Assembly (NCBI GenBank): GCA_965218695.1
Contig: OZ244651.1
Location: 2,176,001-2,240,000 of the forward strand
Length of the DNA: 64,000 nt
Reading direction: 5' to 3'
DNA from: Nitrosopumilus sp.
GTDB lineage: Archaea > Thermoproteota > Nitrososphaeria > Nitrososphaerales > Nitrosopumilaceae
In this document: in pieces, positions 11,077-54,177 of the stretch
Layout: every line of letters starts with the position of its first letter
Numbering within the stretch: the stretch's first letter is position 1
Program-made: the position numbers and the translations under genes
The notes under the pieces: model-generated
What the model was told of the DNA's origin: nothing
What the model saw: the letters and a program-made list of their open reading frames with translations, nothing else
Database searches by the model: none

Positions 11077-11096
11077 ATTGGTTTAAGAGAGGCAGC

Positions 11097-11513
11097 GTGT
11101 TACACCAATTAATGTCCGGACAAGACAACGATGCACAATGGGATTCATTGTGGCAGGAATACTCCAAGTCACTTGAAAACTGGAAGACGCTCTTTGAGCA
11201 GATGCAGAAGGCAAGCACCGAGATGCAGTCCAAGTTCAACGAGGTCTGGGAAAAGGCCACTGCCGAATCCAGCAACGATACCCTCAAGTCGTTTGGAGAA
11301 AATTGGCAAAAGGCCATGACTGAGACCAACATGAGGGCCTTTGAGGGATGGCAGAAGAGCCTTGGCGATACAGGCAAGTCTACGTTTGCACAGTTTGCCG
11401 ACAGCTGGCAGAAATCCCTCGGCACGTCGGGACTGGATCAGATGAACGCCTACGGGGAGATGATGATGAAGTTTGCCGATACCTGGAATTCGATGTGGCC
11501 AAAATCAGGCTAG
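11097..11513 (+). CDS. Trp-periodic amphipathic helical hypothetical protein
   Basis: Repeated F.E.WQK units; probable start MSGQD; TATA-like TTTAAG at about 11082. Confidence 0.75.
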   Translation: MLHQLMSGQDNDAQWDSLWQEYSKSLENWKTLFEQMQKASTEMQSKFNEVWEKATAESSNDTLKSFGENWQKAMTETNMRAFEGWQKSLGDTGKSTFAQFADSWQKSLGTSGLDQMNAYGEMMMKFADTWNSMWPKSG

Positions 11514-12410
11514 CATGAATTGAGAGAGAAACTCTTATTTTTTTGCACCTGCACGGCCTTGGAGATAATGACTGCCGTCGGGGTTGCCGGGTACCTGCTG
11601 TACCTTGGGGAACACATACTGGCGCTGATCTCAACTGTAGTGTTTGGCAAGCTGATCGTGTTTCATTTTGTCATGGAATATTTTGACAGGAGCAGTAATC
11701 CCAGATGTGCCATCTAGCACCTGATGCAAACAGATCAATGGGGGCACGCCCAGACGATCCTTATGTACCACCAAAAAGATCGCCTGAGACGCGATATGAT
11801 GAACAATGGCAAAATATATGAATCTGTTGAGAAGGTGCTGAGAGAAAGCATCGTGCCGTCCGCCGAGGTCTCCAAAAGGTACAACGCGACATATGGCGCA
11901 AGCGACTTTAACGTCGGCATGCTGCATGCCGCGATGCTTGACACTTCGGTCGGCGGATGCAGCTTCGCCATGAGAGAAATCACGGCGCAGTCCATCGAGA
12001 ATCCAAGATATTCACGTCATTCTCCAAGCGACGAGTGGTTTCGCGATATCCTGTCCAAGACGGACGAGGGTAAGGCGCTTGAGACTTTTAACCAGGCGGT
12101 AAGGGCACAGCTGGATGAGCTTTACCTGTTTGGCAGGCTGCCTGATGTGCTTGATGTGGCCATCGACATGCACCTGATACCGTGCCACAGCAAGAAACTT
12201 GGCTCTGACCTGAGAGGCGGAGAGCGCAAGAGCGGCACCAACAGATTCGAGGCGTACATCACGGCGCAGTGCGTCAACTCCAAATCGCGGCTTATCCTTG
12301 CGGCCCTATACGTGGGCAAGTCCTCATCCGTGCACGAATCCCTGCGTGAAATCCTCAATTCGTGCCTAGAAAACGTCTCCGCCGTCGGATCCAGGCTGGG
12401 ACTGATCCTG

Positions 12411-13582
12411 AGACATAATCCGTAATTAGAAATTGTACATATTTTCCTATACTGTGTAGGTTTTTTGACTCCTATCAGGTTGCTTCCCGGACTAGGAGAA
12501 CCCTGAGGTTGGCAAATCCGCAGACGATGTCATTGACGGTGTCGTATTTTTTCAGGCGGTTTCGGTAGACACCGCTCATTATGCGAAACCGTTTGACCCT
12601 GCGGATGGCGTGCTCCACATACACCCGTGCCTTTGAGTGCTTTTTGTTGAATTCCTTCTGCTCGGGGGACAATTCTGCGCCTTTTTGCTTCTTGTACGGC
12701 ACTACTGCATCCCGGTCAGGAAATTCTTTGTTGATCCCCTGGTATCCGTTGTCCAGGATCTCTCTGACTTTGATCCTTTCCTTGTCCTTGCTCCCGTCCT
12801 TGCGTGGAAGGTTGTCAGGGAATGTCGGGTGTTTCTTCTTGAATACTGCAAAGTCGTGGATCCTGCCCGGGGAATGCCGGGTCTTGTGAAGGATGAGGCC
12901 GTCCGTGGCCGACGTGTACTGGACCTTGGACGTGTGCCTGTGTGCCTTGCCCGAGTAGTGGGACCGTTCCATGTCCTTGCGTCCGGGACGCTGTATCTGC
13001 TGCTCGGAGGCATCAATCAGGGCAGTCAGGCCAGGAATGATCTCCTCAAGATCGTCAAGCGTCTTGGTGGCCTTGATGTTGGCGTAGATCTTTGACGGAA
13101 GCGGAACGCACTGCCGGATCGACGGCTCCAGTGCCCCCATGCTGCGGGACACACTGGCCTGACCCACATGGAACGTCAGGGCAAGAAGATCCTGCGTAGC
13201 GTATGTCCTGTAATAAAACAGGACCAGAAGAAACCTGTTTTTCAGATCCAGTTTCCACCTGCGTCCGGCACCAATGCCGCGCACCCTGCTTCTTTTGGCG
13301 AGTCGCTTTTGCTCTGCCTTGGGGTATTTTTTTGCCAGCCGCCCTGCCACCAAATTAAATTCGGAGACTGTCAGTCCAGTGCACCGGATGAACAGTTTGG
13401 GCTTTTTTGCTAATTTGTCGTATAATGACATGCTTTGACATTGGCAATCAGAATAAAACACGGCTGACGTATAGTTTTGATCATCGGGCAAGTTCGAATT
13501 GACATGCAATTCCATGCAGTCAGCCAGATTTGTCCTGCAATGCGTCCAATCTCGTGATTATGCCCAATTACGGATGATGTCT
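12411..13582 (-). mobile_element. IS5-like (DDE_Tnp_4/ISL2-type) element, 1172 bp, copy A
   Basis: TIR AGACATAATCCGTAATT/AATTACGGATGATGTCT; 3-bp DR CTG; matches 25975-27146. Confidence 0.93.
12475..13431 (-). CDS. Transposase (HTH_Tnp_4 + DDE_Tnp_4)
   Basis: LIDASEQ, YSGKAHRHT, GRIHD, LDNGYQG, RVYVEHAIRRVK; probable start MSLYDKL. Confidence 0.92.
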   Translation of the reverse strand: MSLYDKLAKKPKLFIRCTGLTVSEFNLVAGRLAKKYPKAEQKRLAKRSRVRGIGAGRRWKLDLKNRFLLVLFYYRTYATQDLLALTFHVGQASVSRSMGALEPSIRQCVPLPSKIYANIKATKTLDDLEEIIPGLTALIDASEQQIQRPGRKDMERSHYSGKAHRHTSKVQYTSATDGLILHKTRHSPGRIHDFAVFKKKHPTFPDNLPRKDGSKDKERIKVREILDNGYQGINKEFPDRDAVVPYKKQKGAELSPEQKEFNKKHSKARVYVEHAIRRVKRFRIMSGVYRNRLKKYDTVNDIVCGFANLRVLLVREAT

Positions 13583-36626: not shown

Positions 36627-36888
36627 GATACTGCAGGCCAGGATTGTGCATGCAGATCTGATTCTATACTACTTGTCACATCCGGCATGAGTGCTCTGAC
36701 GCATGAACGGATTTGGGGCAGACATAATATGGATCCCTAATTTTAAAAAAACGCAACCCATACTGACCATCTGCATTGTTTCCCTGCAGGCATTGAATAT
36801 ATCATGTAAATTAATGTCTGGATGGATGGATGGAGTGTACGGCGCCATTTTTTATAATATTTTTATACATCCGATACCATATACCGTC

Positions 36889-37140
36889 ATGCCACAGGTC
36901 AGTACTAGTGACGACATAGAACGAGAATCAAGGCGGGTCATAGGTGCATTGTACGGTGATGTCAGCGACTTTCGGGTCAACGCAACGTTTCAGATTCCGG
37001 AGAAGGGCCCTAGGGAGGCATGGGACGTGCAGGTAAACTTTATGCTCAACTCCCTAAAGTATACCGTCGATCTTGAGATGCAGGAGAAGGACGGCCAGGT
37101 AACCAATGCCAGGCTAATCGACACCATGACGCCTCTCTAA
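36889..37140 (+). CDS. Small hypothetical protein
   Basis: MPQVSTSDDIERES...; TATA-like TTTATA about 25 bp upstream. Confidence 0.7.
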   Translation: MPQVSTSDDIERESRRVIGALYGDVSDFRVNATFQIPEKGPREAWDVQVNFMLNSLKYTVDLEMQEKDGQVTNARLIDTMTPL

Positions 37141-37159: not shown

Positions 37160-37678
37160 CTATACTGTCAGAATCTTTTTTGCTTCCCTGATCCTTCCAA
37201 GCAGGCTGTTAATGTAGGTGTCTGCAAACCGCTCAAATGTTACATATTCGTTGGCTCTTTCCAGACTCTTCTGTTTTTTGTACTCTGCTTGTAGCCATTC
37301 AAAATCGGACTCCTTGAGGTTGATGGTGCAATTCTGGGAGTCAAACTTTGACTCTATCACGTTGGCGATGAAATAGCTGACAAACTTTGTAAAACACTTT
37401 ACCCGATACTTCTCATAATACTCCTCTCCAAGCTCCGTATGGTTTGCCTCCAGCCACTGCTGTATATCCAACCTGATGGTCATGGTGTTGTATCGTCCTG
37501 AAAGATCAAGCCTGATCCTGTGCGACTCCACGGAGTAGTAGTCGCGCTTTACCTCATTCATCATGATGATCAGCGTGCTTGGAAGAAACATCCCCGGATA
37601 GTTCTTGTCTGTTACATCCTGCAGTTTTGCAATGATCGCAGGCTTCAGACCCACGGTAGCATAGCCTTTTCCGGGCAT
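37160..37678 (-). CDS. Hypothetical protein, possibly tandem ribbon-helix-helix-like
   Basis: Three internal units (YATVGLK, YNTMTIR, NCTINLK), each followed by helices. Confidence 0.7.
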   Translation of the reverse strand: MPGKGYATVGLKPAIIAKLQDVTDKNYPGMFLPSTLIIMMNEVKRDYYSVESHRIRLDLSGRYNTMTIRLDIQQWLEANHTELGEEYYEKYRVKCFTKFVSYFIANVIESKFDSQNCTINLKESDFEWLQAEYKKQKSLERANEYVTFERFADTYINSLLGRIREAKKILTV

Positions 37679-37813
37679 ACACAATAGACTGATCTGATGC
37701 TTATATCATTTTCAGATTTTTGTACGTGTCTGTCCTTTCAGCACCATATCGCATCCGGTATTTGCTCCCCGGACATCATACGTGTATGATTCTGCATCGC
37801 AGACTAATCCGTA

Positions 37814-38132: not shown

Positions 38133-39773
38133 GTATCTGTGTAGTTTTTTGATCAAATGTTGAACTCCATATCTACAATCAGAAAATCCGCGTCTGTCTA
38201 ATTTTTTAAAACTATTTTTGATCACTTGATCGAGTTTTTCTCTCCGTCCTAATTTTTAGATCATTGTTGCCCACGGTTTGCATATGTCTGATGATAATTC
38301 CGAGTCAAAGATTGCAGAACTGGAGGAAAAAGTGGGTGTGATGGCAGAGCAGATGGCCGAAAAAGACCGGCAGATGGCCGAAAAAGACCGGCAGATGGCC
38401 AAACTCGCTGATCTTTACGCTGCCGCCCTCAAACAGATCCAGGATCTCACGGCAGAGTTGCAGGAGGCAAAGGGCATCATATCGGCTGCCGTTGCAAGGA
38501 GCATCGGCGCAAAACCGGACAAAAAGACCGGCAGTACCCGGCGCCGCGCAAAGGGCAAGGGCAAGGCCAAGGGCAAGCCAAGTGACCACAAACGCACGGG
38601 CCTTGCGCGTCCTGAAAGAATAGACGCAGAGGAGACGGCAGATCCCCACACGTGCGACAACTGCGGCAGCTCCGACCTCTCCGAGTGCGTATCCACGTAC
38701 ACAAAGGTGGTAAGGGAGGCTGCCAAGACGGAACTAAAGCACATCAAGGTGACAGTAAAGAGAAGGCGTTGCAGGAACTGCAAGAGGACCGTGTCCGGCA
38801 GGACCCCGCTGGCACTGCCAAACTCCAGGTACGGGATCAACTTTATGATAATGATGGTCATCCTCAGGCTGCACGGCATGTCAGACCTCAGAATATGCAA
38901 TATTGTCATGATGATGTACTCGGCAAGAATCACGGAATCTGCGATAAACCGCATGGTGTGCAGGATGGCCCGGGAGCTCGGGCCGCTGTACGAGAAGATC
39001 AAGGAGGAGGTAAGAAACTCGCCTGCGATAAACGGGGACGAGACAATCTGGCGCGTCGACGGCACGAACTACTGGCTGTGGGTGGCTGTAGCCAGGTACG
39101 CCGTAATCTACGAGGTGCACCGCCACAGGAACTCGAAGGTTCCAAAAAAGATGCTCGGCAAGGACTACCCGGGATGCGTCACGTCTGACTCGTGGGCCGC
39201 GTGGAACGTCATCGGATCCGAACACCAAAAGTGCCACCTTCATTACGCCCGGGACATCAAGGACACCCTGAAATACAAGAATCCCGGCTACGACTACAAG
39301 CGTCACGCAAGGACGCTGCGCGCGATACTGTGGGACTCGCACATCGACGGCGCCGTTCCGGGAGGGGCAGACGCGCTTGCCGCAAAGAAGAGGCTGGATC
39401 GTCGTATTGCGTCACTTATCGGCAGGCTCGAAAAGGACCGCGACTGCAAGCACTGCAACAGGATGCGCAAGAGGCTGGTGCGGGAAAAAGGCCACCTGTT
39501 TGCGTTTCTGGAGACAGACGGCGTCGAATACCACAACAACCGGGCAGAGCGGGCCATCAGGCCGTGCGTCATCCTGCGCAAGAACAGCAACGGGAGCAGG
39601 TCAAAGAAGGGTGCAGATGCCATTGCCACGCTGATGAGCATCAAGCAGACATGCAAGGCAAGGGGAGATGATCTTGGCACGATCCTGCGCGAGGGCCTGG
39701 CTCCACGTCAAAAAACTGCATAGACGCGCGTAGGCATGGAGTTCAACATTTGATCAAAAAACTATGCAGTTAC
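38133..39773 (+). mobile_element. IS66-family single-gene element
   Basis: 38-bp TIR with 3 mismatches (GTATCTGTGTAGTTTTTTGATCAAATGTTGAACTCCAT); 8-bp DR CCAAAAAC at 38125-38132 and 39774-39781. Confidence 0.93.
38278..39723 (+). CDS. IS66 transposase
   Basis: CDNC/CRNC Zn ribbon, GDETIW, TSDSW, QKCHLHYAR, HNNRAERAIR. Confidence 0.93.
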   Translation: MHMSDDNSESKIAELEEKVGVMAEQMAEKDRQMAEKDRQMAKLADLYAAALKQIQDLTAELQEAKGIISAAVARSIGAKPDKKTGSTRRRAKGKGKAKGKPSDHKRTGLARPERIDAEETADPHTCDNCGSSDLSECVSTYTKVVREAAKTELKHIKVTVKRRRCRNCKRTVSGRTPLALPNSRYGINFMIMMVILRLHGMSDLRICNIVMMMYSARITESAINRMVCRMARELGPLYEKIKEEVRNSPAINGDETIWRVDGTNYWLWVAVARYAVIYEVHRHRNSKVPKKMLGKDYPGCVTSDSWAAWNVIGSEHQKCHLHYARDIKDTLKYKNPGYDYKRHARTLRAILWDSHIDGAVPGGADALAAKKRLDRRIASLIGRLEKDRDCKHCNRMRKRLVREKGHLFAFLETDGVEYHNNRAERAIRPCVILRKNSNGSRSKKGADAIATLMSIKQTCKARGDDLGTILREGLAPRQKTA

Positions 39774-39897: not shown

Positions 39898-41484
39898 ATG
39901 GTAGAGATTGATGGGTTTGGTATTGCAATTATCGGATTCATCGTTCTCACGCTTGTAGTGGGCATCCTTGCAGGCAGGCTGGTAAAAAAGAGCGGCAAGA
40001 GGCTGATAGTTGCAGGCAAGAGCCTGCCACTGGTCATGGTCGGAACAATGCTTGCAGCACAGGCAGTGGACGGAAACGCGTCACTGGGAAACATCGCACT
40101 GGTCTTCAGTTTCGGCTTCTGGGCCGGGGCAGTAGTTCCGATAGGCCTGGGCACGTGCCTGTTGGTGGTTGCCGCATTCTATGCCAAACCGCTAAACAAG
40201 ATGTCGATGATTACCCTCCCTGACTTTTACTACCGACGATTCGGAAATGGGGCCGAGGGGATGTCCGGCGTGCTCATGATTCTTAGTTTTATAATTCTCG
40301 TGGCAGGCAATCTGGCTGCCTGTGGGTTCATCCTAGAGGTCGTATTTGGAATAGACTACTTCTGGGGTGTACTGCTCGCATCCCTGGCCGTCGTGGCATA
40401 TACGATAGCCGGGGGACTGTTTGCCTCTGCATATACGAACCTCTTCCAGGTGTATCTTGCAATAGGTTCGTTCTGGGCTGCATTCCTGTTCTTTGGAGGC
40501 GGCTTTGCATCGGTACCGTGGGACGTCATATACAACAACGCCCCGCCGGAGTTTCTGGATCTCTCAGGACTGTATGATGTTGCCAACGGGGCTCTGATCA
40601 ACTGGGGTGCCATATTTGCACTCGGGCTTGGAGACATCATCGCACTTGACTTCATGGAGAGGGTGTTCTCTGCCAAGAACCCAAAGACTGCAAGGAAGGG
40701 TGCCCTCATGGGAGGCGCACTGACACTCTTTACGGTTATTCCTACAAGCATGCTGGGAATCGTGGCATTCTACTATCTTCCAGGAGACACAATACCTGAA
40801 TTGGCCATGCCGATACTTGCCACGCAGTTTATGCCGTTTGCAATAGGAGCTGCCATACTGATGGGAGTGATCGGGGCATCCATGTCCACTGCGAGCGGAG
40901 GGCTGCTGGCCATATCAAGCGTGGTCTCGCGGAACATACTGCAGAGGATAATCCGGCGCAGGTGGCTGGGAAAGCCGGCCTGGAGTGACAACAAGCTGCT
41001 TGTAGCCACGCGGATTGTCATTATCCCCATGATGATCGCCGGTGCCGCACTGGCATACTTTGTGCCTGCCCCCGGATTCTTCCTTATACTGGCATTTGAC
41101 ATCGTCTTTGCCGGGGCCCTTGCGCCTCTCACATTCGGACTCTTCTGGAAGAAGGCAAACATGCCTGCAGCCGTTGCCTCCCTGCTTGGAGGTTCACTCC
41201 TGCGATTGTCGTTCTTCTTCATAGTGCCAGGAGAGTTATACGGATTAGGCTCAATGATACCGCCTGCATTCTCGTTTGTACTGTTTATAGTAGTCGCACT
41301 TGCAACCCAGGACAAGTATCCCGGAAAGGCAAGGCACGACATACGGGACTATGTTCCGCCAGAGGAGGATATCATTGCCGGCGAGGATCTCAAGCACTTT
41401 CAGGAGAGCGACGAGTCGCTGTCCGGCGTGCAGAACACAGACACGTCAGGGCCGGACTCCGGCATGGCGCACAAGAATGCCTGA
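39898..41484 (+). CDS. Sodium:solute symporter (SSS/SLC5 family)
   Basis: About 13 TMs; VAGKSLP, TLPDFYYRRFG, YTIAGGL, GASMSTASG. Confidence 0.92.
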   Translation: MVEIDGFGIAIIGFIVLTLVVGILAGRLVKKSGKRLIVAGKSLPLVMVGTMLAAQAVDGNASLGNIALVFSFGFWAGAVVPIGLGTCLLVVAAFYAKPLNKMSMITLPDFYYRRFGNGAEGMSGVLMILSFIILVAGNLAACGFILEVVFGIDYFWGVLLASLAVVAYTIAGGLFASAYTNLFQVYLAIGSFWAAFLFFGGGFASVPWDVIYNNAPPEFLDLSGLYDVANGALINWGAIFALGLGDIIALDFMERVFSAKNPKTARKGALMGGALTLFTVIPTSMLGIVAFYYLPGDTIPELAMPILATQFMPFAIGAAILMGVIGASMSTASGGLLAISSVVSRNILQRIIRRRWLGKPAWSDNKLLVATRIVIIPMMIAGAALAYFVPAPGFFLILAFDIVFAGALAPLTFGLFWKKANMPAAVASLLGGSLLRLSFFFIVPGELYGLGSMIPPAFSFVLFIVVALATQDKYPGKARHDIRDYVPPEEDIIAGEDLKHFQESDESLSGVQNTDTSGPDSGMAHKNA

Positions 41485-41530: not shown

Positions 41531-43222
41531 ATGAAATATCCTGACTTGCTGCCTGCGGACCTTGCACGCGTGGGAACCGCAGAATCAAGAAAACTCAACC
41601 TCATAGTGGGCCAGCTGGTAACTGATGCCGTAAAGACGTCCCTAGGGCCCCGTGGGATGGAGAAGATCTTCACTGACATAATCGGCGAGGACACCATAAC
41701 CAAGCACGGAGGCGCGTTTCTGCGAAAAGTCGACGTCGAGCATCCTGTGGCCAAGGCGATCGTGGAAGGCGTCAACACGGTGGATACGCACGTGGGGGAC
41801 GGAACAGTCTCTGCTGCAATCCTGATAGGCTCCCTGCTCAAAAAGGCCGACGGGATGCTCAGTATGGGGCTGCAGCCTGCCACAATCATCAGGGGGTATG
41901 AGCGGGGACTGGATCTTGCACTGGAGACGCTTGACGGGGTAAAGGTGGCCAGGGATGCCTCGGACAGACATGTCCTGGAGCAGCTTGCAGCCTCGTGCCT
42001 TGGCGGAAAGGCCATAACCAGCCTGGTCTCTGATGCACAGGGGCTCCGGCAGATGATAGTTGATGCATGCTGCCATGTGGCCGATCTTCAGAACGGCTCC
42101 ATTGATGTTGATGACATCAAGATAGAAGAAAAGCTTGGAAACGCAAACGACATACAGCTGATCCGGGGAACCGTGCTTGACAAGACCATTGACAATGCGG
42201 CAATGCCACGGTGCGTTACCGATGCCAGGATACTGCTCCTCAACGAGCCGCTTGAGACTATGCGTACCAAGACTGATGATGCCATAGAGATAGACTCCCC
42301 GGAGCAGATGTCGCGCTTTCTTGAACAGGAGGTCATCGACGTGCGCAATATGGTACAGAAGATTATTGATTGCGGAGCCGGCGTGGTCGTGTCCCGAAAG
42401 GGGATAAATGACATTGCACAAGAGTGCCTTGCACAGGCCGGAATAATCTCGATAAGAAGGGCCAAGTATAATGATCTCTGGTGGCTTGAAAAGGCCACGG
42501 GAGCCTCTGTCTGCAAGAGTCTTGATACAGTGTCCTCCTCGGAATTGGGATATGCGCAGAAGGTGCATGAGAGGATGGTCGGCGACGAGAGGATGGTATT
42601 TGTAGAGGGCTGCAGGAATCCGCGCTCAGTGACCATCCTGCTGCGCTCAAACTCCAAGAGGTATCTTGACGAGTTCCACCGCAGCGCCCTCAATGCGCTG
42701 TTCGTACTGAGGGACTTTATCCAGACCCCGTACGTGGTGCCCGGATGCGGCTCCATCGAGGCGGTGCTGGCAGACAGAATCAAGGAGAGATCAGTCAGCA
42801 TAGGGGACAGGAGCCAGATTGCAGTTGCAATGTTTGCAGAAGCCCTGGAGGAGATCCCGTTGACCCTGGCAAGAAACGTCGGCATGGATCCGCTTGACAC
42901 ACTGACTGCCATCAGATCCCACTATGGGAATTCCCACGGCAGGTCCGGATGGTACGGCATAGACTCGGAGAGAAGGTCAGTCTCTGAGGTGTTTGGCACG
43001 GGGGTGATAGAGCCCCTTGTAGTCAAACAGCAGGTGCTAAAGACTGCAGCAGAGGTGTCTGTGATGATCCTCAACGTTGATGACATATTCATGAAAGACG
43101 AGATTGACAACACGCACTGCCACATAGACGGAACTGTCCACGCGCACCATGACGGCGGGAAGGCGCACAACCACTTTGAGCAGGAGGGGCTGGAGCAGAG
43201 GCAAATGCACCATTACTACTAG
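41531..43222 (+). CDS. Divergent group II chaperonin with His-rich C-terminal tail
   Basis: SLGPRGMEK, GDGTVS, IPLTLARNVGMDP, VIEPLVVK; tail NTHCHIDGTVHAHHDGGKAHNHFEQEGLEQRQMHHYY. Confidence 0.9.
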   Translation: MKYPDLLPADLARVGTAESRKLNLIVGQLVTDAVKTSLGPRGMEKIFTDIIGEDTITKHGGAFLRKVDVEHPVAKAIVEGVNTVDTHVGDGTVSAAILIGSLLKKADGMLSMGLQPATIIRGYERGLDLALETLDGVKVARDASDRHVLEQLAASCLGGKAITSLVSDAQGLRQMIVDACCHVADLQNGSIDVDDIKIEEKLGNANDIQLIRGTVLDKTIDNAAMPRCVTDARILLLNEPLETMRTKTDDAIEIDSPEQMSRFLEQEVIDVRNMVQKIIDCGAGVVVSRKGINDIAQECLAQAGIISIRRAKYNDLWWLEKATGASVCKSLDTVSSSELGYAQKVHERMVGDERMVFVEGCRNPRSVTILLRSNSKRYLDEFHRSALNALFVLRDFIQTPYVVPGCGSIEAVLADRIKERSVSIGDRSQIAVAMFAEALEEIPLTLARNVGMDPLDTLTAIRSHYGNSHGRSGWYGIDSERRSVSEVFGTGVIEPLVVKQQVLKTAAEVSVMILNVDDIFMKDEIDNTHCHIDGTVHAHHDGGKAHNHFEQEGLEQRQMHHYY

Positions 43223-43253: not shown

Positions 43254-43988
43254 CTAGAGGATGCTGCCTGTAGTGAGTATGCCGTAGATTATGTGCGCCC
43301 CTATTGCAAGGCTGAATGCACCTGCCAGATACCTGGCAATCCTCTGTACGGACCCTGCCCTTGAGGTAAGGGCAAGCGGCAGGCCGATCAGATTGCTTAT
43401 CAGGGTCATGCCGATTATGGAACCGAGTCCGAATATGAGAATGAAGCTGATCACCATTCCTGCGCTGTCCAGCGTGACTGCAGTCAGGACGACCAGGCTG
43501 CCGCTGCCTGCAAGTCCGTGGATCAGCCCTATGATGTACGACTTGTGGCCGTGTCTGTGATCCGTGTGACTGTGCTCATGAACATGGAATGTTCCGTCAT
43601 CGTGTCTGTGGGGGTGCCTGTGCCTGAGGCTGAAGAGCCTCCTCCTGTCCAGTATTGTGACTGTCCCCAGTACGATAAGCATAACCCCCACTGCCGCCTC
43701 AAGGCCGGTAAAGACGTTATCCTGAATCTGTATTGCAAGGACGTACACCAACAGTCCCATTATGATCAGAGTCGTCGTGTGTCCTGCGCCCCACAGTATC
43801 CCGATTACCGATGACCGGGCTATCCCTTTTCGGACGACATCCCTGATCCGCCCGCCCGCCTTGGTCCCGGATGCCCTGGTGGCCACTGCTGCAACATGAT
43901 CCGATTCGAATGCGTGCTCCAGTCCTATGGCAAGGCCCAGTCCCAGTGCAAGCAGGGGACTAAAATCAAGCAGGTTCTCCAGTGTCAT
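43254..43988 (-). CDS. UreH/NiCoT-type nickel/cobalt transporter
   Basis: EHAFESDH (cf. HAxDADH), WGAGHT, His-rich loop HRHPHRHDDGTFHVHEHSHTDHRHGH, HGLAGS; 6 TMs. Confidence 0.88.
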   Translation of the reverse strand: MTLENLLDFSPLLALGLGLAIGLEHAFESDHVAAVATRASGTKAGGRIRDVVRKGIARSSVIGILWGAGHTTTLIIMGLLVYVLAIQIQDNVFTGLEAAVGVMLIVLGTVTILDRRRLFSLRHRHPHRHDDGTFHVHEHSHTDHRHGHKSYIIGLIHGLAGSGSLVVLTAVTLDSAGMVISFILIFGLGSIIGMTLISNLIGLPLALTSRAGSVQRIARYLAGAFSLAIGAHIIYGILTTGSIL

Positions 43989-44088: not shown

Positions 44089-44460
44089 CTATGATCCCCT
44101 CAGGACATACCTGCTGATTCTTATCGGGGAGTCCAGATTCAGCACCGTCTCTGAATTACCGGATGTCATACGGAATACGAGCCTTCTCATGCTCTCCGGA
44201 ACCCCAATCATGACATTGTCAGGTGAGATGAGATCGCGTACCTGCTCCCTTGCGTCATCTGTACTCACTCCTGCTGCGATCTGCCTCATGACGTATGCTG
44301 CCATTGCCATTACTGCCTCGTTTATGTTGATGCGTATGCCTCCCTGAATCTTCCTGTCGATGGCCTTTGCCGACTCTAGCACCACATCCTGGCCATACCC
44401 TGAAAAGATGATCATTGGCTGCGTGTCCGGGTCGCCTTGAACCTCTGCGCTGAACCTCAT
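44089..44460 (-). CDS. Divergent urease gamma-subunit-like protein
   Basis: RKIQGGIRININEAV, VMIGVPESM and LDSPI align with UreA RRxxRGLKLNYPEA, VMEGVPEM and VHNPI. Confidence 0.75.
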   Translation of the reverse strand: MRFSAEVQGDPDTQPMIIFSGYGQDVVLESAKAIDRKIQGGIRININEAVMAMAAYVMRQIAAGVSTDDAREQVRDLISPDNVMIGVPESMRRLVFRMTSGNSETVLNLDSPIRISRYVLRGS

Positions 44461-45575
44461 TGCCTGTCCGGAATCTCTGCACGCGGGCCGTCACTGAAGT
44501 GGTATGTGTTGCCCGTTCCCCTGTAGCTGTTGGGCCTCACGGGACTTCCGTCCTCCAGCCCCCTCTTTGTCAGGGAGAGACCTGCAAGCAGCTCGACTAT
44601 GAGCCTCTGGCCAAGTCCGGATGTTATTCCCCCGTTGTACGAACTGTTGTCGCTGACATCATACGCAGGTGCGACTTCCACCAGATCCATGGCGAACCTG
44701 TCCGGATCAAAGGACTTTGAGAGGAGCCTTACCATCCTCATTCCTTCCCTGGATGTGAGGCCGTTGGGTTCGGGCTCGCCGGTACCAGGGGCATATGCCG
44801 GATCAAACGAGTCAATGTCCCAGCTAAGGTACACTGCATCGGTCCCGTCGTTGGCCCTGTCTGCAATCTCCTTTGCTATCATGTCGATTCCAAGCTCTTC
44901 TACATCCAGCATGGTAAACCACTGGAAGTCCTGGTCAGACATCCACTTGTACAGGTCCGGTCCCGGCCAGTATCCGCGTGGACCCACCAAGGTGTAGTTC
45001 TTTCCCTTCATGCAGCCCATCTCCATTATCCGCCGGATGTGCGCGCCATGATCGTACTTGTAGCCTGTGAGTCCCTGTGGCGCGCAGTCTGCGTGGGTAT
45101 CAAAATGAATCATGCCTATGTTTTTGTATTTTTTTGCAAACGCCCTGACATTGGCATATGTAATCGAGTGATCGCCTCCAAGCATTACCGGTATGCCCTC
45201 CTCGTCAAGCACCTCCTTGACCTTCTTTGTCATGCGCTTGTGCGACTCTATGACATCTCCGGGGGAGACATGGACGTCTCCGTAGTCTACCGTCCTGAAC
45301 GTTCCAAACGGATCCGCCCCTGTCTCAATGTTGAATCTCTCGTACGGGGGGGACGGAATCGTTGATGCGGCGCGGAGTGCCCTCGGGCCGTACCTTGCCC
45401 CCGGACGGATCGTGGTCCCAAAATCAAACGGTTCGCCAATCACGGCAACGTCAGGCTTTGCCTGCTTTAGCTCCTCGTGCGTTCTTATCCATGGCAGGTG
45501 CAAAAACGTATTGATGCCTACGAACGGCGCAACATCGGCACCCCTGTAATCATCACCATAAAACTCCATGCCCAT
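44457..45575 (-). CDS. Ureohydrolase (agmatinase/guanidinase superfamily)
   Basis: RPGARYGP, GGDHSIT, HFDTHAD, DIDSFDP, PGTG, DLVEVAP; probable start MGMEFY. Confidence 0.93.
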   Translation of the reverse strand: MGMEFYGDDYRGADVAPFVGINTFLHLPWIRTHEELKQAKPDVAVIGEPFDFGTTIRPGARYGPRALRAASTIPSPPYERFNIETGADPFGTFRTVDYGDVHVSPGDVIESHKRMTKKVKEVLDEEGIPVMLGGDHSITYANVRAFAKKYKNIGMIHFDTHADCAPQGLTGYKYDHGAHIRRIMEMGCMKGKNYTLVGPRGYWPGPDLYKWMSDQDFQWFTMLDVEELGIDMIAKEIADRANDGTDAVYLSWDIDSFDPAYAPGTGEPEPNGLTSREGMRMVRLLSKSFDPDRFAMDLVEVAPAYDVSDNSSYNGGITSGLGQRLIVELLAGLSLTKRGLEDGSPVRPNSYRGTGNTYHFSDGPRAEIPDRQ

Positions 45576-45679
45576 GACACCCAATCTGTAAATTTGATAA
45601 TTAAAGATTCTAGGTAAACTACGCATGTTATATCATTGCCGGTTCATGTGGCATGATGGGATAAATTTCGGAATATGTA

Positions 45680-46966
45680 ATGTACGATTTAACTATAAAA
45701 ATAATATTTGTCAAAATACCATTGATGATAGGTGCATCCAAGAGTTCGACTGACTACATGAACGAGGGTCTGACTGCAGTATACTATAACGAGTTCAAAA
45801 AGGCCGTATCAAAGTTTGACCGGGCAGTCTCAATTGATCCGGAAAACATCGTGGCGCAGCTTCACAGGGGCATCACGCTTGGCAAGATTGGTCGCCACAA
45901 GGATGCCGTGGCATGCTTTGATGCAGTCCTTGATGCTGATCCCAAGAATCTTGATGCGCTGTACAACCGCGGCCTGTGCTTGGAAAAGATGAAGCAATAC
46001 GAGGAGGCCGTAGACTGCCTTGCCGAATCCCTCAGAGTCGATCCCGGGTTCCTGGACTCCCTGACTGAGACCGGTGTGTGCCTTGGCAGGATGGGAAGAA
46101 ACAAGGAGGCCCTGGAGATGATTGAGCGTGCGCTGGACATCGATCCGAAATACTCTGCTGCGTTATACAACAAGAGCCTGATCCTGGGACGGTTGGGCAG
46201 AAAGGCTGAGGCAATGTCATTCCTGCAGGACGCAATCGAGGAGGATTCCAGACAGTCTGATGCAGTATATCAGGAGGGACAAAAGCTTGCCCAGGAAGGA
46301 AAGCACAAGGAGGCAATACGGCTGTACACCCACGCCCTGGAGATTGACGGCAAGAATACTGAGGCTCTGGTTGCAAAGGGATGGACCCTTGACTTTGCAG
46401 GATTCTCAAACAAGGACGTATTCGTATTCTATGACAAGGCACTGGAGATAGACCCGCATTGTACAGATGCCTGGCTGCACAAGGGACTGGTGCTGGACAG
46501 GACGGGCCTGTACAAAAAGGCAGTAAAGTGCTTTGATCGCATCCTGGAGTATGATTCGCAAAATGTCAGGGCGCTTTACAGCAAGGGCATATCGCTCTTC
46601 TCGCTCAAACGCTTTGGGGCCGCGCGGTTCTACTGCGAGTGCGCCCTGGAGGCCGACCCCAAGAACATCCAAGCCCTATGCAGCATGGTGTGGCTTTTGG
46701 AGCATGCAAAAAAATACAACGAGGCGCTGGCCTACTGCGAGCAGGCGCTGAAGATCAATCCAAACTATGTCTACGCCGTAAGCTACAAGGGAAAGCTGCT
46801 CATGCGGCTCAAGCGGTATGCCGAGTCCCTGGAGTGGTACGACAAGACGCTGGCCCTTGCGCCTGACAACCAGACTGCAATATACCACAGGAACATGGTT
46901 ATTGATGCAATCGAAAAGGCCAAGAAGGATGATTCTGCATCCAGAAGGTTCTTCCCAAGATTATAA
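45680..46966 (+). CDS. Tetratricopeptide repeat protein
   Basis: About 11 34-aa repeats (A..IDP..ALYNKG); true start may be slightly downstream. Confidence 0.92.
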   Translation: MYDLTIKIIFVKIPLMIGASKSSTDYMNEGLTAVYYNEFKKAVSKFDRAVSIDPENIVAQLHRGITLGKIGRHKDAVACFDAVLDADPKNLDALYNRGLCLEKMKQYEEAVDCLAESLRVDPGFLDSLTETGVCLGRMGRNKEALEMIERALDIDPKYSAALYNKSLILGRLGRKAEAMSFLQDAIEEDSRQSDAVYQEGQKLAQEGKHKEAIRLYTHALEIDGKNTEALVAKGWTLDFAGFSNKDVFVFYDKALEIDPHCTDAWLHKGLVLDRTGLYKKAVKCFDRILEYDSQNVRALYSKGISLFSLKRFGAARFYCECALEADPKNIQALCSMVWLLEHAKKYNEALAYCEQALKINPNYVYAVSYKGKLLMRLKRYAESLEWYDKTLALAPDNQTAIYHRNMVIDAIEKAKKDDSASRRFFPRL

Positions 46967-49523: not shown

Positions 49524-50776
49524 TACCAAAAGTGAAAAGTTGATGCGATTGTCACATATTTTACCGCATCTAGAGTTATACCAATTTCACGTCCCACAGT
49601 CAATGAAGATCAAGACGATGTTGAAAAGATACACCGCTGAGACAGACTGCGATACCAAGGACCGCATGATGCTGATCATCAGAGTCAAACGTGATGGAAT
49701 AACCATGAGGGATTCTGCAAAATCCCTGGGAAAGTCAGCCTCGTGGGGCTACAAGTGGCATGAGCGCTACCTGGAAGTCGGATTTGACAGGCTGGGAAAC
49801 ATGCCGCGCTCCGGCAGGCCGACCAAGGCGAGCAAGGCAGACATGAAGAAGATCAGAAAGGCCGCATGCAGTAAACCGGTCTGGACGGGCAGGGAGATGC
49901 AGCAATACATCCAACAGAAGACCGGAGTAAAGTACGAACTCGGATATGTGCGCCAGATACTGCGCGGGTGGGGCTATTCCCAAAAGGTTCCCGTAGGAAA
50001 ACATGCAAGAAGGGCACCTGACGAGGAGATCAGGAAATTCCAAAAAGAGATGCCAGAGATTATAAAAAAAGAACAGTGAAGGAACAGTCGTAGCGATACA
50101 GGACGAGTCCATAGTAATCTCCGATGCGCGGCCGCGAAGACGCGGCTACACCAGGAAGGGAATACGGGCGTTTTTCACGTACACCGGCTCACACTCCAAG
50201 ACGATAATCCATGGACTAATCACCACGGACGGCAGGGGCATGTTCCGGCAGTACGATGCGTTTACCAAGGACACCTTTGAGGACTTTCTAAGGCAGGCGA
50301 TGTACAGGTTCAAGAAGATCTGCCTGATCATGGACAAGGCCTCCCAGCACAGGGCATCAAACATACGCAAACTGCTTGATGGCACAGACGGCCTGGAGAT
50401 AATCTTCCTGCCAACTGCAACCCCGGACCTGAGCGCCATAGAGACGTACTGGAGGGATCTCAAACGGGCAGTGCTTGACGTGCCGTACACCAGCCTGAGC
50501 ATGCTCCGCGAGGCGATCACCCGGTACACGAGGTACAAAAAACCGAATCTGGTAGTCGAGAATTTTCTGTACAGGGCCATCTAGAACGACATCAAACCGC
50601 ACCGGATCCACGCCGCCTAGCGTGTGCCATGCACGGCGCACCAGAGCATGCAATGTCTAATGTTCGGGGCGTCTTTTCTCGTCATTTGGGAATTCAACGC
50701 ACCTCGTAATTTCCAGAGACGGCTGTTGCATCAAAAATTTATGAGCGATTTTGATATGAATTTTTCATTGCTGGTA
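49524..50776 (+). mobile_element. IS630-family element nested in the 3' end of the ISH3 transposase gene
   Basis: Imperfect TIR TACCAAAAGTGAAAAGTT/AATTTTTCATTGCTGGTA; TA duplication. Removal restores ISH3 Tnp end SKPPIPDLR*. Confidence 0.85.
49603..50584 (+). pseudogene. IS630 transposase split at an A7 run
   Basis: HTH ORF (RSGRP) stops at 50079; AIQDES, MDKASQH and DLSAIETYW lie in the +1 frame after the A run at 50064-50070. Confidence 0.8.
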
Positions 50777-51908
50777 TAGGCGGTTTGGACTGGCGTATGA
50801 GGAGTGATTCCAACTGCACCTTGAACGTGAGCATGGTCATGACACTCTGCCTTTCGGTACCGTCAGAAAGCATTGCCCTGACGATTATCCATTCATTGTA
50901 CAATGTTAGGGAATAGTAAAAACACAACATCCGCGATTCCATGTCCGAAATCCGCGTCTTGGCCCTGCACTCCTCGATTTTACCGTACCCGGTCTCTATT
51001 CCCCATCTTTTGGCATAAGCCTCCGTCTTGATTGTGGGGTGGTTTGTTGCAAACCCGATGTATTTCTCTTCCGGGACATCAGGGTCTTTGGCGTTTTTTC
51101 TTTCAGTTATTATCATGGAATATTCGACGGAGCCCTGGTTGTTCTCAATCACGTTTGTTGAGATCCTTTCCCTCTTTCCTTGTGCAAAATCCTGCAGGGC
51201 TTCCACCACGTTGGGCGTGTTCCTGCACGGCATCAGGTACCTTACGCCGTTTGCCCGCAGCCTGCTTATCGTGTCGACTGAGAAGAATTCCCGGTCAAGC
51301 AGCGCCAGGCGGATCCTGATGCCCATCCCTGCCATGGTCTTGAGGACTGCATCCACGTAATCAGGCACGAATTCGAGCCTTTTGAGGTATGATGCTGCAA
51401 GGACCATGCGCATCTTGTCGTTTACGCACTGGACTGTCATGTAACGCTCAAAATACGTGGTTCCGTTTTTGTATTTGGAACGGGTCAGCTCCCCTCCGGG
51501 TGCCCGGTCATAACGCGGTATGAGGTGCATGTCGATTGCGATGTCCAGTCCTTCTTTTGGGAATTTGCCCAGTTTTTTGAATGTGTCAAGTTGCACTGCC
51601 ACCATTTCTTCGAATGCGCGCTGAACCGTGCCCTGCTCCATCCCCTTGATTGCCGATGCATGCCACCTGTCGGAGGGAGCGTCGCAGTGCGTGCGCTTTA
51701 CCGCGTTTGCGCACCCGCCTACGGACGAATCCATGGTGGCTCCCCTCAGCATGCCGTGATTTAGATCGTCTGTTCCAAATACCGCATTGTACCTGTTTGA
51801 CGTGTTGGCGCAGGCAAGCATGTTTTTCATGCCGCTTGCGACATCTTGATATATTCTTGGATTGTTCAGTAGATCGCGGCCCTGCTTGGTTTTTTGTCTA
51901 GACAACAA
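50739..51908 (-). CDS. ISH3 transposase (last few residues replaced by IS630 end)
   Basis: AIDMHLIP, LLDREFFS, YAKRWGIETGY. Confidence 0.9.
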   Translation of the reverse strand: MLSRQKTKQGRDLLNNPRIYQDVASGMKNMLACANTSNRYNAVFGTDDLNHGMLRGATMDSSVGGCANAVKRTHCDAPSDRWHASAIKGMEQGTVQRAFEEMVAVQLDTFKKLGKFPKEGLDIAIDMHLIPRYDRAPGGELTRSKYKNGTTYFERYMTVQCVNDKMRMVLAASYLKRLEFVPDYVDAVLKTMAGMGIRIRLALLDREFFSVDTISRLRANGVRYLMPCRNTPNVVEALQDFAQGKRERISTNVIENNQGSVEYSMIITERKNAKDPDVPEEKYIGFATNHPTIKTEAYAKRWGIETGYGKIEECRAKTRISDMESRMLCFYYSLTLYNEWIIVRAMLSDGTERQSVMTMLTFKVQLESLLIRQSKPPIPAMKNSYQNRS

Positions 51909-52026
51909 AAACCATAGGGCCGTACCCTTATTGATCTGCTTGCATTCTTGTCAGATTTTGCCTAGATCAAAGCACATTTCGCTTAGCTGAATCGTCTGTG
52001 ACCTGTTAACAAAAACAAGCTTGTTG

Positions 52027-54177
52027 GTAAGAGGTCGCCTTTGCGAAGCGATTCCGTGCCTGATCTGCCCCGATTAATTACCAACTGAGCTACGTTTTCG
52101 GCCGTAAATGCCCATTTAATTGGCATTATTTCAGGTTTTTTCCGGGAGGGTCAGACTGAGCTACGTTTTGGCCGATCCGGTGATCGGGTTTGCGAAGTGG
52201 CCTTTTTTGAAGCGGCCGGGCGGTGAATTGTGCCGGGATCAGGCGAGGTTATGCCAGGCTGCCGGCGCGACGGGTCTGCATGGAACAGTCAGGGAGTGGA
52301 TTTTGCAGGATTTATGCAGTTGCTGCTGCTCCTGTCGGAATTTTTTCGACAAGACCGTGCATATAGTCAACCAAAAAGTCATGCGGGTTGACTCCGCGCC
52401 TCCTGCACGTCTCGCGGACGGTGGCCAGGACGGCGTGGTTGTATGCGCCGGCAAGGCTCTTGCTGCCGCCTGAGACCTTCCGGGATGCGACGCTGGGCCG
52501 CAGGGGGCGCTCGGCATCGTTGTTATGGCACTTTGTGTTGAGGCGGATGAATGGGAACAGGTGGGTGATCTCGCGCCGCAGCCGCTTGACAAACCGCTTG
52601 CAGTGGGCGTCTGTATACTCGCCGGAGATCAGGCGCCTCACCCTGGCCAATAGGTTGCGCACCTTGAGGTTTCGCGTGGCCTCGTCGTCGTCCGGGTCGA
52701 GTCCCTTCTCCGGGAACCAGGAATCGGTGATTATCCCCTTCAGGGCCTTGGCGAACTTTTTGAATTCGGGCCCGGGGTTCTTCATGGTCAGGGTGCGGAG
52801 GATCTCGCGGAGGTAGTGGTAGTGGCACTTTTGGTGGGTCCTGCCGATGCGGTTCCACGCAGCGTGTGAATCAGAGGTGACGTGGCCGCCGTACCCTCCA
52901 AGCAGGGTCTCCAGCACGTCTCCTCCCCGGCTCTTGTCCACGTAAAAGACAGTCGAGTTGTCACCGACTAGTATCCACAGCCAGTACAGTATCCCGGCTA
53001 CCCTCCAGCTGGTCTCGTCGCCAAAGACATGCCCTGAGAAGAATATATCCTCGAGCATCTCCTCGTAGAGCGGGTGGAGGGATCCCGTAACGGCATCCAC
53101 GTGGCTGATGACTGTCGACTTGGCAAGGCCTGCGTGGTAGATTATGTTGATCAGCTTGCGGATGGGTTCGTAGGGAATGTTGTACATCCTCATCGTCGTC
53201 TCAAGGCACGTCAGGCTGGCGCCGAACCGCCCCCCTGGGACGACCCCTGGGATCTCGGGGGCAAACTGCCTGCCGCATTCCCCGCAGTACCTGCGGACGA
53301 CGGTATACTGGATGCCGGTCAGCTTCCCGTCGATGATCTCCTCGACTACCCGGATGGTCACCTCGGTGGGCTCCTTCGAGAGGGCATGGCCGTGCGGGCA
53401 GGCGGGCATGTCGACTAGCTTTTTTTCGGATATCGGGGGAGGATCACGGCCGGTGCGCAGGCAGACGACCTTCCTGAACGGGTCCGGCGCAGGCCCTGGT
53501 GATTCCCGGAGCCGCTTCTGGGAGCGGCGGCTTTTGATGCCCAGATTCTCGGCTGCCAGCGCCGAGTTGGCCGCGCGCGCCTCCCTTAACTGAGAGGCAT
53601 GCTCTGATGCCTGCCGTTCCAGGCGGGCTATCCTGTCCATGACTGCCTGCGAGACGTCGCATCCCTGCAGGAGGGCGGCATTCTCTGCCCTCAGTTTCTC
53701 TATCTCGGAGTCCTTTTGCACATTCTCTTCTTCCAGCAGTTTGATCCTGGCATCCATCTCCGTCAGCATCGCATGTTCCCCTGAGAAGGCCTCTGCCTCC
53801 TCCTTCAGCTGCTCGATGTCTTTTCTCAGCGCCATGCTCTCCTCGTCCTTGGATTTGAGCATGTCCAAGACGGATTCGAAGAGGGACTTGGTGTCGGTTA
53901 CGGAGTTCCAGTCAATCTTTTCCAAGTCGATTACAGGCACCACGCCATAACACGGGAAGGCATGATCCATAAAGCTTTTGGGCACGCAGCGCCTGCCGGA
54001 AAATGCGGCGCAAAAGATCCAACCGGAAGAGCCTTGATCCGAAAACCGCTCTGCCTGCCTGAGGACCGTGTTGATAACGTGCAATTAATCGGGTATTTAT
54101 GGTCAAAAACGTAGCTCAGTTGGTAATTAATCGGAACAGATCAGGCACGGAATTGCTTCGCAAAGGCGACCTCTTAC
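52027..54177 (-). mobile_element. IS66-family single-gene element with about 96-bp TIRs
   Basis: GTAAGAGGTCGCCTTTGCGAAGC... inverted at 52027-52122 and 54082-54177; no matching 8-bp DR. Confidence 0.9.
52312..54084 (-). CDS. IS66 transposase with long N-terminal coiled coil (true start probably near 53940-53970)
   Basis: CPHG/CGEC, GDETSWR, TSDSH, QKCHYHYLR, HNNDAERPLR. Confidence 0.9.
   Translation of the reverse strand: MHVINTVLRQAERFSDQGSSGWIFCAAFSGRRCVPKSFMDHAFPCYGVVPVIDLEKIDWNSVTDTKSLFESVLDMLKSKDEESMALRKDIEQLKEEAEAFSGEHAMLTEMDARIKLLEEENVQKDSEIEKLRAENAALLQGCDVSQAVMDRIARLERQASEHASQLREARAANSALAAENLGIKSRRSQKRLRESPGPAPDPFRKVVCLRTGRDPPPISEKKLVDMPACPHGHALSKEPTEVTIRVVEEIIDGKLTGIQYTVVRRYCGECGRQFAPEIPGVVPGGRFGASLTCLETTMRMYNIPYEPIRKLINIIYHAGLAKSTVISHVDAVTGSLHPLYEEMLEDIFFSGHVFGDETSWRVAGILYWLWILVGDNSTVFYVDKSRGGDVLETLLGGYGGHVTSDSHAAWNRIGRTHQKCHYHYLREILRTLTMKNPGPEFKKFAKALKGIITDSWFPEKGLDPDDDEATRNLKVRNLLARVRRLISGEYTDAHCKRFVKRLRREITHLFPFIRLNTKCHNNDAERPLRPSVASRKVSGGSKSLAGAYNHAVLATVRETCRRRGVNPHDFLVDYMHGLVEKIPTGAAATA

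Follow-up and report, generated by a model that had tools for sequence, protein, structure and literature searches.

A His-tailed group II chaperonin of Nitrosopumilus with a substituted catalytic site and its association with an arginase-family ureohydrolase

In a 64 000-nucleotide stretch of a Nitrosopumilus sp. genome (contig OZ244651.1, positions 2,176,001 to 2,240,000; the whole stretch is called the window here, and positions refer to it), a gene at 41531..43222 encodes a group II chaperonin of 563 residues in which both aspartates of the canonical catalytic site are replaced and a His-rich tail stands in place of the Gly/Met tail. It is very probable that this chaperonin is specialised and linked to a set of neighbouring genes, among them one for an arginase-family ureohydrolase, and it would thereby represent a functional, lineage-restricted thermosome paralogue that forms a fixed part of an accessory module in urease-positive ammonia-oxidising archaea (AOA). 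To the combined reading, namely a hydrolysis-impaired, metal-binding (probably nickel-binding) chaperonin dedicated to maturation of the ureohydrolase, we attach about an even chance. The elements of the gene referred to below are as follows.

41531..43222, + strand: group II chaperonin, His-tailed and without the catalytic Asp pair, 563 aa (open reading frame (ORF) with ATG start; PF00118, 453 bits)
41705..41707, + strand: codon of His59, first catalytic Asp position (TITNDG to TITKHG; alignment)
41807..41809, + strand: codon of Val93, phosphate loop (alignment)
42677..42679, + strand: codon of His383, clade-defining Glu-to-His replacement five residues ahead of Asn388 (invariant column)
42692..42694, + strand: codon of Asn388, second catalytic Asp position, Mm-cpn D386 / GroEL D398 (alignment)
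43106..43219, + strand: 38-residue His-rich tail D526-Y563 with three HxH pairs and HHYY (ORF and alignment)

Catalytic site and C-terminal tail of the chaperonin

The predicted protein matched Cpn60_TCP1 (PF00118) with an E-value of 1.5e-135, residues 30-522 covering positions 1-488 of the 490 in the profile, and BLASTP against the canonical thermosome encoded at 28546 gave 203/506 identities (40%). A first-pass annotation of the window had called the gene a group II chaperonin and had quoted several short sequence strings, all of which were found exactly in the ORF; the call agreed with both searches. Of the NCBIfam models, NF041082 (thermosome_alpha) and NF041083 (thermosome beta) were passed with scores of 495 (cut-off 450) and 485 (cut-off 400), and the score for TIGR02339 was 482, under the cut-off of 671; the corresponding scores of the 28546 copy were 772, 782 and 745 bits. 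The genome holds three chaperonin genes, and the two canonical paralogues end in Gly/Pro/Met-rich sequences. An AlphaFold2 (AF2) model of the protein, built from a 58-row alignment, reached a mean pLDDT of 86.7 and a pTM of 0.83, was superposed by Foldseek on the closed chaperonin of Methanococcus maripaludis (Mm-cpn, 3RUS) with TM scores of 0.88/0.96 and a root-mean-square deviation of 2.1 Å, and contained the equatorial, intermediate and apical domains as well as the built-in lid.

When aligned with the 28546 product, TITNDGATIL was found to read TITKHGGAFL (Asp to His59), GDGTTS to read GDGTVS (Thr to Val93) and RSIHDSL to read RSALNAL (Asp to Asn388). From the alignment and from the general literature on chaperonins, we take the two aspartates to be those of GroEL D52/D398 and, for the second, Mm-cpn D386. 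The titles of PDB entries 3IZH and 3J02, which name D386A Mm-cpn in a pre-hydrolysis ATP-bound state, are consistent with the D386 assignment; a literature search for a GroEL D52A/D398A double mutant found no paper. Among the 31 tailed orthologues described below, the first position is occupied by His in 24, by Asn or Ser in five and by Asp in one (30 sequences, one being without the region), as against 92% Asp in 66 reference chaperonins, and the second by Asn in 24, Asp in five and Ser in two. Loss of both aspartates, as reported in the first-pass annotation, thus held for 24 orthologues and did not extend to six others in which one is kept, the partial sequence lacking the second. The double loss is confined to the main Nitrosopumilaceae group of 24 sequences (the core group); five orthologues retain the second Asp and one the first. 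Of 30 orthologues, 24 carry Val, Ile or Leu at the third Thr of GDGTT, five keep Thr and one has Ser.

The nucleotide-binding elements have been kept. Conservation across the 31 orthologues is 90% or more at G39, P40, R41, G42, G89, D90, G91, T92 and K160, and GPRG, GDGT and the Lys of the sensing loop show next to no variation. In the protein of the window, GCG takes the place of GGG in the GxG motif. The clade is further marked, relative to the 66 references, by K58, H87 (Glu in the references), W318 and H383, the last being present in 31/31 tailed sequences and in 0/66 references. Three acidic residues have in this way become His: D59H and E87H lie beside the conserved nucleotide motifs and E383H near the second catalytic Asp. 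Since one or both of the carboxylates by which water is activated for ATP hydrolysis are lost and the binding loops retained, ATP is probably bound with little or no hydrolysis, and, judged from these substitutions, an impaired ATPase in the core group appears likely.

The final 35 residues (THCHIDGTVHAHHDGGKAHNHFEQEGLEQRQMHHYY) contain 9 His and 1 Cys. The same pattern, T-H-x-H-x-(D/N)-G-x-x-H-x-H-x6-H-(D/N)-(H/Y)-(F/W/Y)...G..QR..H-(H/Q)-(Y/H)-(Y/H), ends all 31 orthologues, with eleven invariant positions (T528, H529, H531, G534, H537, H539, H546, G553, Q556, R557 and H560), six of them His set out as HxH pairs; of the His/Cys tail recognised in the first-pass annotation, the His part is therefore general and the Cys is limited to the core group, Thr or Ser taking its place elsewhere. 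Mean pairwise identity is higher in the tail than in the body of the protein, both in 30 sequences (73% against 56%) and in the core 24 (87% against 60%), and in its degree of conservation the tail roughly equals the most conserved 38-residue stretch of the body, located in the N-terminal nucleotide-binding region. In the core 24, 23 of the 38 tail residues are invariant, 22 of these 23 being coded by more than one codon, and third-position identity is 47% as compared with an amino-acid identity of 87%, the synonymous sites being saturated. The use of several codons for all but one of these invariant residues, together with the low third-position identity, indicates that the constraint acts on the protein. 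Conservation includes the second half of the tail (FEQEGLEQRQMHHYY) and is not limited to His. A word-based search of shorter proteins with the tail alone returned 49 matches, all of them fragments of the tailed chaperonin, and no stand-alone or foreign carrier.

Distribution of the chaperonin and its gene module

A protein search yielded more than 100 full-length relatives of 562-564 aa with 62-97% identity, whose source names were without exception 'thermosome subunit' of Nitrosotenuis, Nitrosarchaeum, Nitrosopumilus or Nitrosopumilaceae. In a protein library reduced to clusters of 50% identity, the best 150 matches listed include three that extend into the tail, two of them full-length clusters and the third a fragment; the other matches that could be judged were ordinary chaperonins of at most 42% identity. 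The distribution was then defined in 151 Nitrososphaeria genomes of at least 80% completeness, including the present one and the unpublished G115 (a non-carrier only), a sequence being accepted as an orthologue when the match reached the last residue or was interrupted by a contig end. By this measure 31 of the 151 genomes carry the tailed chaperonin: 28/93 in the family of the window, 3/6 in a second family and 0/52 elsewhere, with 7/37 in the genus of the window.

In a quick maximum-likelihood tree, the tailed sequences formed a monophyletic group (SH-aLRT 100) whose stem branch is long (0.55); the partial sequence of L032 and, from L047, an ORF that had been picked in error were left out of it. 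The comparison with other thermosomes proposed in the first-pass annotation has thus yielded a well-delimited clade but not its place among thermosomes, the apparent sister P0158 lying on a long branch. In the same tree the chaperonins of this genome and of G112 grouped apart from the five other copies of their genus. The ureohydrolases of these two genomes are 93-94% identical to those of other genera and 80-88% identical to four of the five other same-genus copies (92% to that of G068). From the two observations, lateral movement of the whole module within the family is suggested.

The chaperonin gene is accompanied in the window by the following genes.

36703..37140, + strand: 145-aa protein of no identified family, syntenic with the module
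37160..37684, - strand: 174-aa protein of no identified family, co-occurring with the module
39898..41484, + strand: sodium:solute symporter (SSF; PF00474, E 6.4e-25), 46 bp upstream of the chaperonin gene
43254..43988, - strand: NicO/UreH-like membrane protein with HX4DH at ~43896-43916 and a His-rich loop at ~43560-43640 (Atlas lead, loop motif)
44089..44460, - strand: urease-gamma-like protein, 123 aa (PF00547, E 1.2e-6), directly downstream of the ureohydrolase gene
44457..45626, - strand: arginase-family ureohydrolase, ORF of 389 aa (PF00491, E 1.6e-81)
45680..46966, + strand: cytosolic TPR-repeat protein (TPR family matches)

These neighbours were compared by tblastn with 30 orthologous loci, up to 9 kb on each side of the chaperonin gene; loci missing some module genes often stop at contig edges. 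A symporter orthologue was found in 29/30 loci and the ureohydrolase in 24/30, the latter with 78-98% identity across the two families, well above its neighbours; for the chaperonin itself the range is 45-96%. The 145-aa protein was present at 26 loci, the 174-aa protein at 24, the urease-gamma-like protein at 22 and the His-loop membrane protein at 20, and the TPR protein gave long matches at 19 (40-90% identity), with short TPR proteins in distant loci. The synteny spans two families. Across the 151 genomes the ureohydrolase occurs in 32, namely the 31 chaperonin carriers and G062, no genome has the chaperonin without it, and the presence of the two agrees in eight genera in which some genomes are carriers and others are not. 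The gamma-like protein (29/151) and the 174-aa protein (28/151) were found solely within the 32 ureohydrolase carriers.

Such a pattern makes it scarcely credible that the gene is a decaying duplicate without function. Lost catalytic residues and a thermosome score of 495 against 772 bits are what decay might produce, but the ORF is full-length and intact in 29 of the 31 carriers and interrupted in the other two by contig ends, purifying selection is strong and the synteny is kept across two families. In the first-pass annotation, decay was to be recognised by orthologues that do not conserve the substitutions and the tail; since the tail is kept in 31/31 and no scored orthologue has the catalytic Asp pair complete, simple decay is excluded.

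Ureohydrolase, nickel and urease

The solved structures closest to the ureohydrolase are those of guanidinobutyrase (3NIO, E 4e-51) and of two Ni-containing guanidinases, the guanidine hydrolase of Synechocystis (7ESR/7OI1) and the enzyme of Nitrospira inopinata (9FEK), followed by proclavaminate amidinohydrolase, guanidinopropionase and metformin hydrolase, and its metal motifs GGDHS, DxHxD (DTHAD) and SxDxDxxDP (SWDIDSFDP) are all present. Translation is likely to start at Met18 (MGMEFYG..., ~45575), as several relatives have stop codons upstream of this position. A second, separate arginase-family gene lies elsewhere in the genome, so that the enzyme of the module is an extra paralogue. We infer that its substrate is a guanidino compound yielding urea. 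According to PMC11410670, the N. inopinata guanidinase contains one Ni and one Mn per subunit, and co-expression with Ni-loading chaperones much increases the activity of the cyanobacterial guanidine hydrolase; comammox bacteria have no known Ni-loading chaperone and their Ni loading is unexplained, and guanidine-degradation genes were not found in AOA in the screen of that paper. An SSS transporter clustered with an 'agmatinase' has been described in a soil clade (PMC11131427). In one of the most distant lineages (L026, genome G116), genes for a pyruvoyl-dependent arginine decarboxylase and two deoxyhypusine synthases lie at 10712-13417, just downstream of the chaperonin gene, a neighbourhood which gives a hint of agmatine as the ureohydrolase substrate.

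The membrane protein encoded at 43254-43988, convergently to the chaperonin and 31 bp from its stop codon, had no match in Pfam or NCBIfam. Its nearest Atlas clusters were nickel transporters (NicO, UreH and HoxN; 0.96-0.98), which serves as a lead only, and it carries an HX4DH motif (HAFESDH), presumably the NiCoT signature. Its cytoplasmic loop, HRHPHRHDDGTFHVHEHSH, shares with the chaperonin tail the motif H.H.[DN]G..H.H; when the entire genome was translated in six frames (20,866 ORFs of 60 aa or more), the motif was seen in these two proteins and nowhere else. The motif was also present in 13/19 transporter loops of other loci, one of which reads HTHEDGTVHAH beside a tail of THCHLDGTVHAH at the same locus. 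The His-loop transporter was not found in the second family in a search of the 151 genomes; the loci of that family, and those of a genus belonging to the first, hold a bona fide PF03824 NicO gene instead, placed in two Nitrososphaeraceae loci between the chaperonin and the gamma-like gene. Altogether, a nickel-transporter gene of either type lies within 9 kb of the chaperonin gene in 26/30 loci. At the DNA level, the tail motif (43110-43140) and the loop motif (43585-43615) form an inverted match of 31 nt with 71% complementarity. This match is too weak for a copy event between the tail and the loop, which was rejected, and probably just mirrors the shared amino acids.

The C-terminus of thermosomes is directed into the cavity floor. 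Given a cavity-facing tail whose three HxH pairs are common to the nickel-transporter loop, binding of a divalent metal, most likely Ni(II), may be expected. As predicted from the sequence, metal binding by the tail is likely, and nickel is a candidate for the metal to which we give slightly less than even odds. The first-pass annotation had connected the protein with nickel and with the ureohydrolase nearby, and this connection has gained genomic support from the co-occurrence of chaperonin and ureohydrolase (31/32 genomes), the proximity of transporter genes and the recurrence of the tail motif in the transporter loop. The annotation had proposed a 'Ni reservoir' or a 'metal-insertion chamber', which are distinct functions; from the pattern of co-occurrence, a client-specific role is to be preferred to that of a general reservoir.

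A ring acting as a high-capacity His sponge, which would hold imported Ni(II) and protect the cell without any specific client, could make use of the many sites offered by nine His per subunit, would fit the nearby transporters and their shared motif, and has an analogy in His-rich GroEL1 and HspA, discussed as metal-homeostasis proteins in the literature. A plain sponge, however, needs neither a near-invariant 38-residue tail nor a full chaperonin body under selection; 18 urease genomes manage without the chaperonin, the His-loop transporter occurs without it in at least 12 genomes, and the distribution tracks the ureohydrolase and not general nickel use. We regard a storage role as improbable. 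A role unrelated to metal, in which a hydrolysis-dead subunit in canonical rings or in rings of its own would serve one difficult client or a response to stress or pressure, with the tail as a docking or regulatory peptide, is in keeping with the intact fold and ring-forming domains of the AF2 model, with conservation of the second half of the tail beyond its His residues, with the TPR protein of the module and with a pressure-related role suggested in PMC7265257. It is nevertheless distinctly unlikely, the six invariant His being arranged as HxH pairs and their motif recurring in the Ni-transporter loop; moreover, orthologues in Nitrosotenuis, Nitrosarchaeum and Nitrosopumilus and in Nitrososphaeraceae-level relatives show that this is not a deep-sea trait, which counts against pressure adaptation.

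Urease is a Ni enzyme and had to be considered as an alternative client, which the tailed chaperonin would stabilise or supply with nickel. The ureC gene was detected (E <1e-40) in 50 genomes, comprising 32/32 module genomes, and hence 31/31 chaperonin carriers, and 18 further ones without the module; it lies 1-25 kb from the chaperonin gene in G105, G120, G148, G038, G008, G004, G131 and G127. Extra chaperonins near urease genes are described in PMC5797428 and PMC7265257, the former (Abby et al. 2018) reporting an Hsp60 homologue that is conserved in the urease loci of Nitrosocaldus and Nitrososphaerales and that Nitrosopumilales lack. For this homologue of soil ammonia oxidisers the same helper role has been proposed, and HspA of Helicobacter pylori is a precedent. 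Chaperonins of 520-546 aa which match the published homologue were found 1-2 kb from ureC in L057-L061 (G099, G103, G141, G121 and G113), where the module is absent. Like the tailed protein it is a second, specialised AOA chaperonin paralogue in a nitrogen-acquisition locus, but in these five genomes it shares just 25-28% identity with the protein of the window, keeps both Asp (VSNDG, RDGVNA) and an intact GDGTTT, and ends in NLAADDLSQQALSESKR without a His tail; neither this genome nor the tailed loci contain it. Identity of the tailed chaperonin with the urease-locus homologue was therefore rejected, the two being different families by identity, state of the catalytic site and tail.

The two types can coexist, and G142 offers the best evidence that the tailed chaperonin goes with the ureohydrolase and not with urease: an Asp-intact, urease-locus-type chaperonin (C1:386258) adjoins ureC (C1:384495), and the tailed one (C1:2543402) adjoins the ureohydrolase gene (C1:2545507), ~2.1 Mb away from ureC. 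In this genome, too, ureC is ~1 Mb from the chaperonin gene. Of the 32 genomes with the ureohydrolase, 31 also have the tailed chaperonin; the corresponding ratio for urease is 31/50, 18 of the 50 urease-positive genomes being without the tailed chaperonin. A urease helper is thus quite unlikely, and for the ureohydrolase as the client we see an even balance of chances.

Several points weigh against a nickel-binding, hydrolysis-impaired chaperonin for the ureohydrolase. Tail residues 525-563 have a pLDDT below 50, and the AF2 model yields no structure for them. Asn also occupies the second Asp position in ~15% of the 66 reference chaperonins, and as six orthologues have one catalytic Asp left, some members may still hydrolyse ATP. 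Because Mn and Ni members of the arginase family share their metal ligands, the ureohydrolase sequence does not show Ni use, and 3NIO, its best PDB match, is an Mn enzyme. The shared motif was defined after both proteins had been inspected, so that two occurrences in 20,866 ORFs is a post hoc figure. The His-loop transporter is present in 43/151 genomes as against 32 with the module, at least 12 of them without it, and may serve urease, which is present in all module genomes. In G062 (210 contigs) a short contig carries the ureohydrolase gene and the search for a tailed chaperonin was negative, and the co-occurrence counts overstate independence because the carrier genomes are related to each other.

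If the preferred reading of a chaperonin dedicated to the ureohydrolase is correct, the protein would bind ATP and hydrolyse it poorly or not at all, its tail would bind a divalent metal, most likely Ni(II), and it would mature the ureohydrolase by folding or assembling the enzyme and by supplying or selecting its metal; the matured enzyme would act on an imported guanidino compound to give urea, the nitrogen of which would then be handed by urease to ammonia oxidation. A more detailed version, which we consider rather unlikely, is that of a 'metallochaperonin' with a His-rebuilt ATP site that takes Ni(II) from the transporter and offers a private, nickel-loaded chamber for folding a Ni-dependent guanidino-ureohydrolase. 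D59H, E87H and E383H would here rebuild the ATP site, up to ~70 tail His per ring would line the cavity floor, Ni(II) would be handed over by the membrane transporter through ligand exchange, the HxHxDGxxHxH motifs of the two proteins being identical, and the folding compartment would decide which metal the ureohydrolase receives.

The remaining neighbours add some detail. The gamma-like gene overlaps the ureohydrolase gene by 4 bases, its product matches PF00547 weakly but above the cut-off and TIGR00193 below it (E 2.2e-7), with conserved NINE and QVMIGVPE-like motifs, and it could, to judge by these matches, be a small subunit of the ureohydrolase or a bridge to urease. Neither the 174-aa nor the 145-aa protein had a Pfam or NCBIfam match; the former is possibly a regulator of the module, having a ribbon-helix-helix (RHH)-like N-terminus with Atlas RHH leads of just 0.82-0.84. 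An IS66-family transposase gene (38278-39723, +) separates the 174-aa gene from the symporter gene, and as the closest relative, G112 (L004), has a 587-bp gap there, the insertion is specific to this genome; further transposase genes occur at 49540-54084. ParB-like and universal-stress-protein genes lie beside the module in the two most distant lineages (L026, 4435-5726; L031, 7284-8500) and were not seen adjoining it in this window. Just upstream of the tailed chaperonin of L026, at 7541-7924 and ~115 kb from ureC, a cobW/HypB/UreG match was considered as a dedicated Ni GTPase and rejected, since it is the truncated remnant of a ureG-like gene and matches ureG as found in urease loci.

Relation to known chaperonin systems

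With canonical thermosomes (Mm-cpn, Thermococcus KS-1, T. acidophilum and the 28546 copy) the protein has in common the Pfam family, the three-domain fold, the lid, the GPRG and GDGT loops and the sensing-loop Lys. It differs from them in its 40% identity to the 28546 product, the replaced Asp pair, the three acidic-to-His changes and a fixed His motif in place of the Gly/Met tail, and also in being an accessory protein, present in 31/151 genomes and bound up with a single enzyme module. The vertebrate proteins BBS6, BBS10 and BBS12 are likewise diverged paralogues of group II chaperonins and assemble one complex, and in some of them the ATP site is degenerate; these are eukaryotic, have no metal tail and serve unrelated clients. 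The Ni-loading proteins of GdmH are small, HypA/HypB-like metallochaperones, neither chaperonins nor homologous to the tailed protein. They are comparable as dedicated helpers that raise the activity of a Ni-dependent arginase-family enzyme (as cited in PMC11410670).

The closest parallels for the tail are bacterial. In mycobacterial GroEL1, a His-rich tail likewise replaces the Gly/Met tail and is linked to Cu handling (PMC10170517, 10.1101/766162), but GroEL1 is a group I chaperonin and is not known to be connected with a ureohydrolase or nickel transporter. HspA of H. pylori is a chaperonin-system protein with a His-rich C-terminal extension serving Ni enzymes including urease; it differs in being a GroES-type co-chaperonin lid and not a cage subunit, with a His/Cys-rich Ni-binding domain and no catalytic-site issue. 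Two traits of His-tail metal chaperones (HspA, GroEL1 and the UreE/HypB/SlyD type) were found in the tailed chaperonin, namely a His-rich terminal extension and linkage to metal enzymes and metal transport (ureohydrolase 31/31, urease 31/31, transporter 26/30). An 'additional thermosome', for which pressure adaptation was suggested, has been described in the hadal thaumarchaeal metagenome-assembled genome MTA1 (Zhong et al. 2020, PMC7265257), and probably belongs to the same family, as the layout given for it matches the module; the paper reports neither the residue changes nor the tail nor the ureohydrolase. In our literature search, no paper was found on these residue changes, on the tail or on a link between chaperonin and ureohydrolase, nor on a Nitrosopumilus ureohydrolase or an AOA thermosome with agmatinase; on histidine-rich thermosomes and nickel, the search yielded just a paper that to judge by its title deals generally with low-complexity regions.

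Chaperonins are usually seen as general ATP-driven folding machines, and the tailed protein, if dedicated to the ureohydrolase as proposed, would provide a clear example, in archaea, of a chaperonin that serves one client and possibly delivers metal to it. It bears on the question, raised in PMC11410670, of how arginase-family enzymes are loaded with Ni in nitrifiers that lack known Ni chaperones. Should the metallochaperonin version hold, the module would constitute a so far unrecognised route for organic nitrogen in AOA, from a guanidino compound by way of urea to ammonia. The combination of transporter, ureohydrolase and urease could widen the range of nitrogen substrates of these archaea, which are globally important in the nitrogen cycle.

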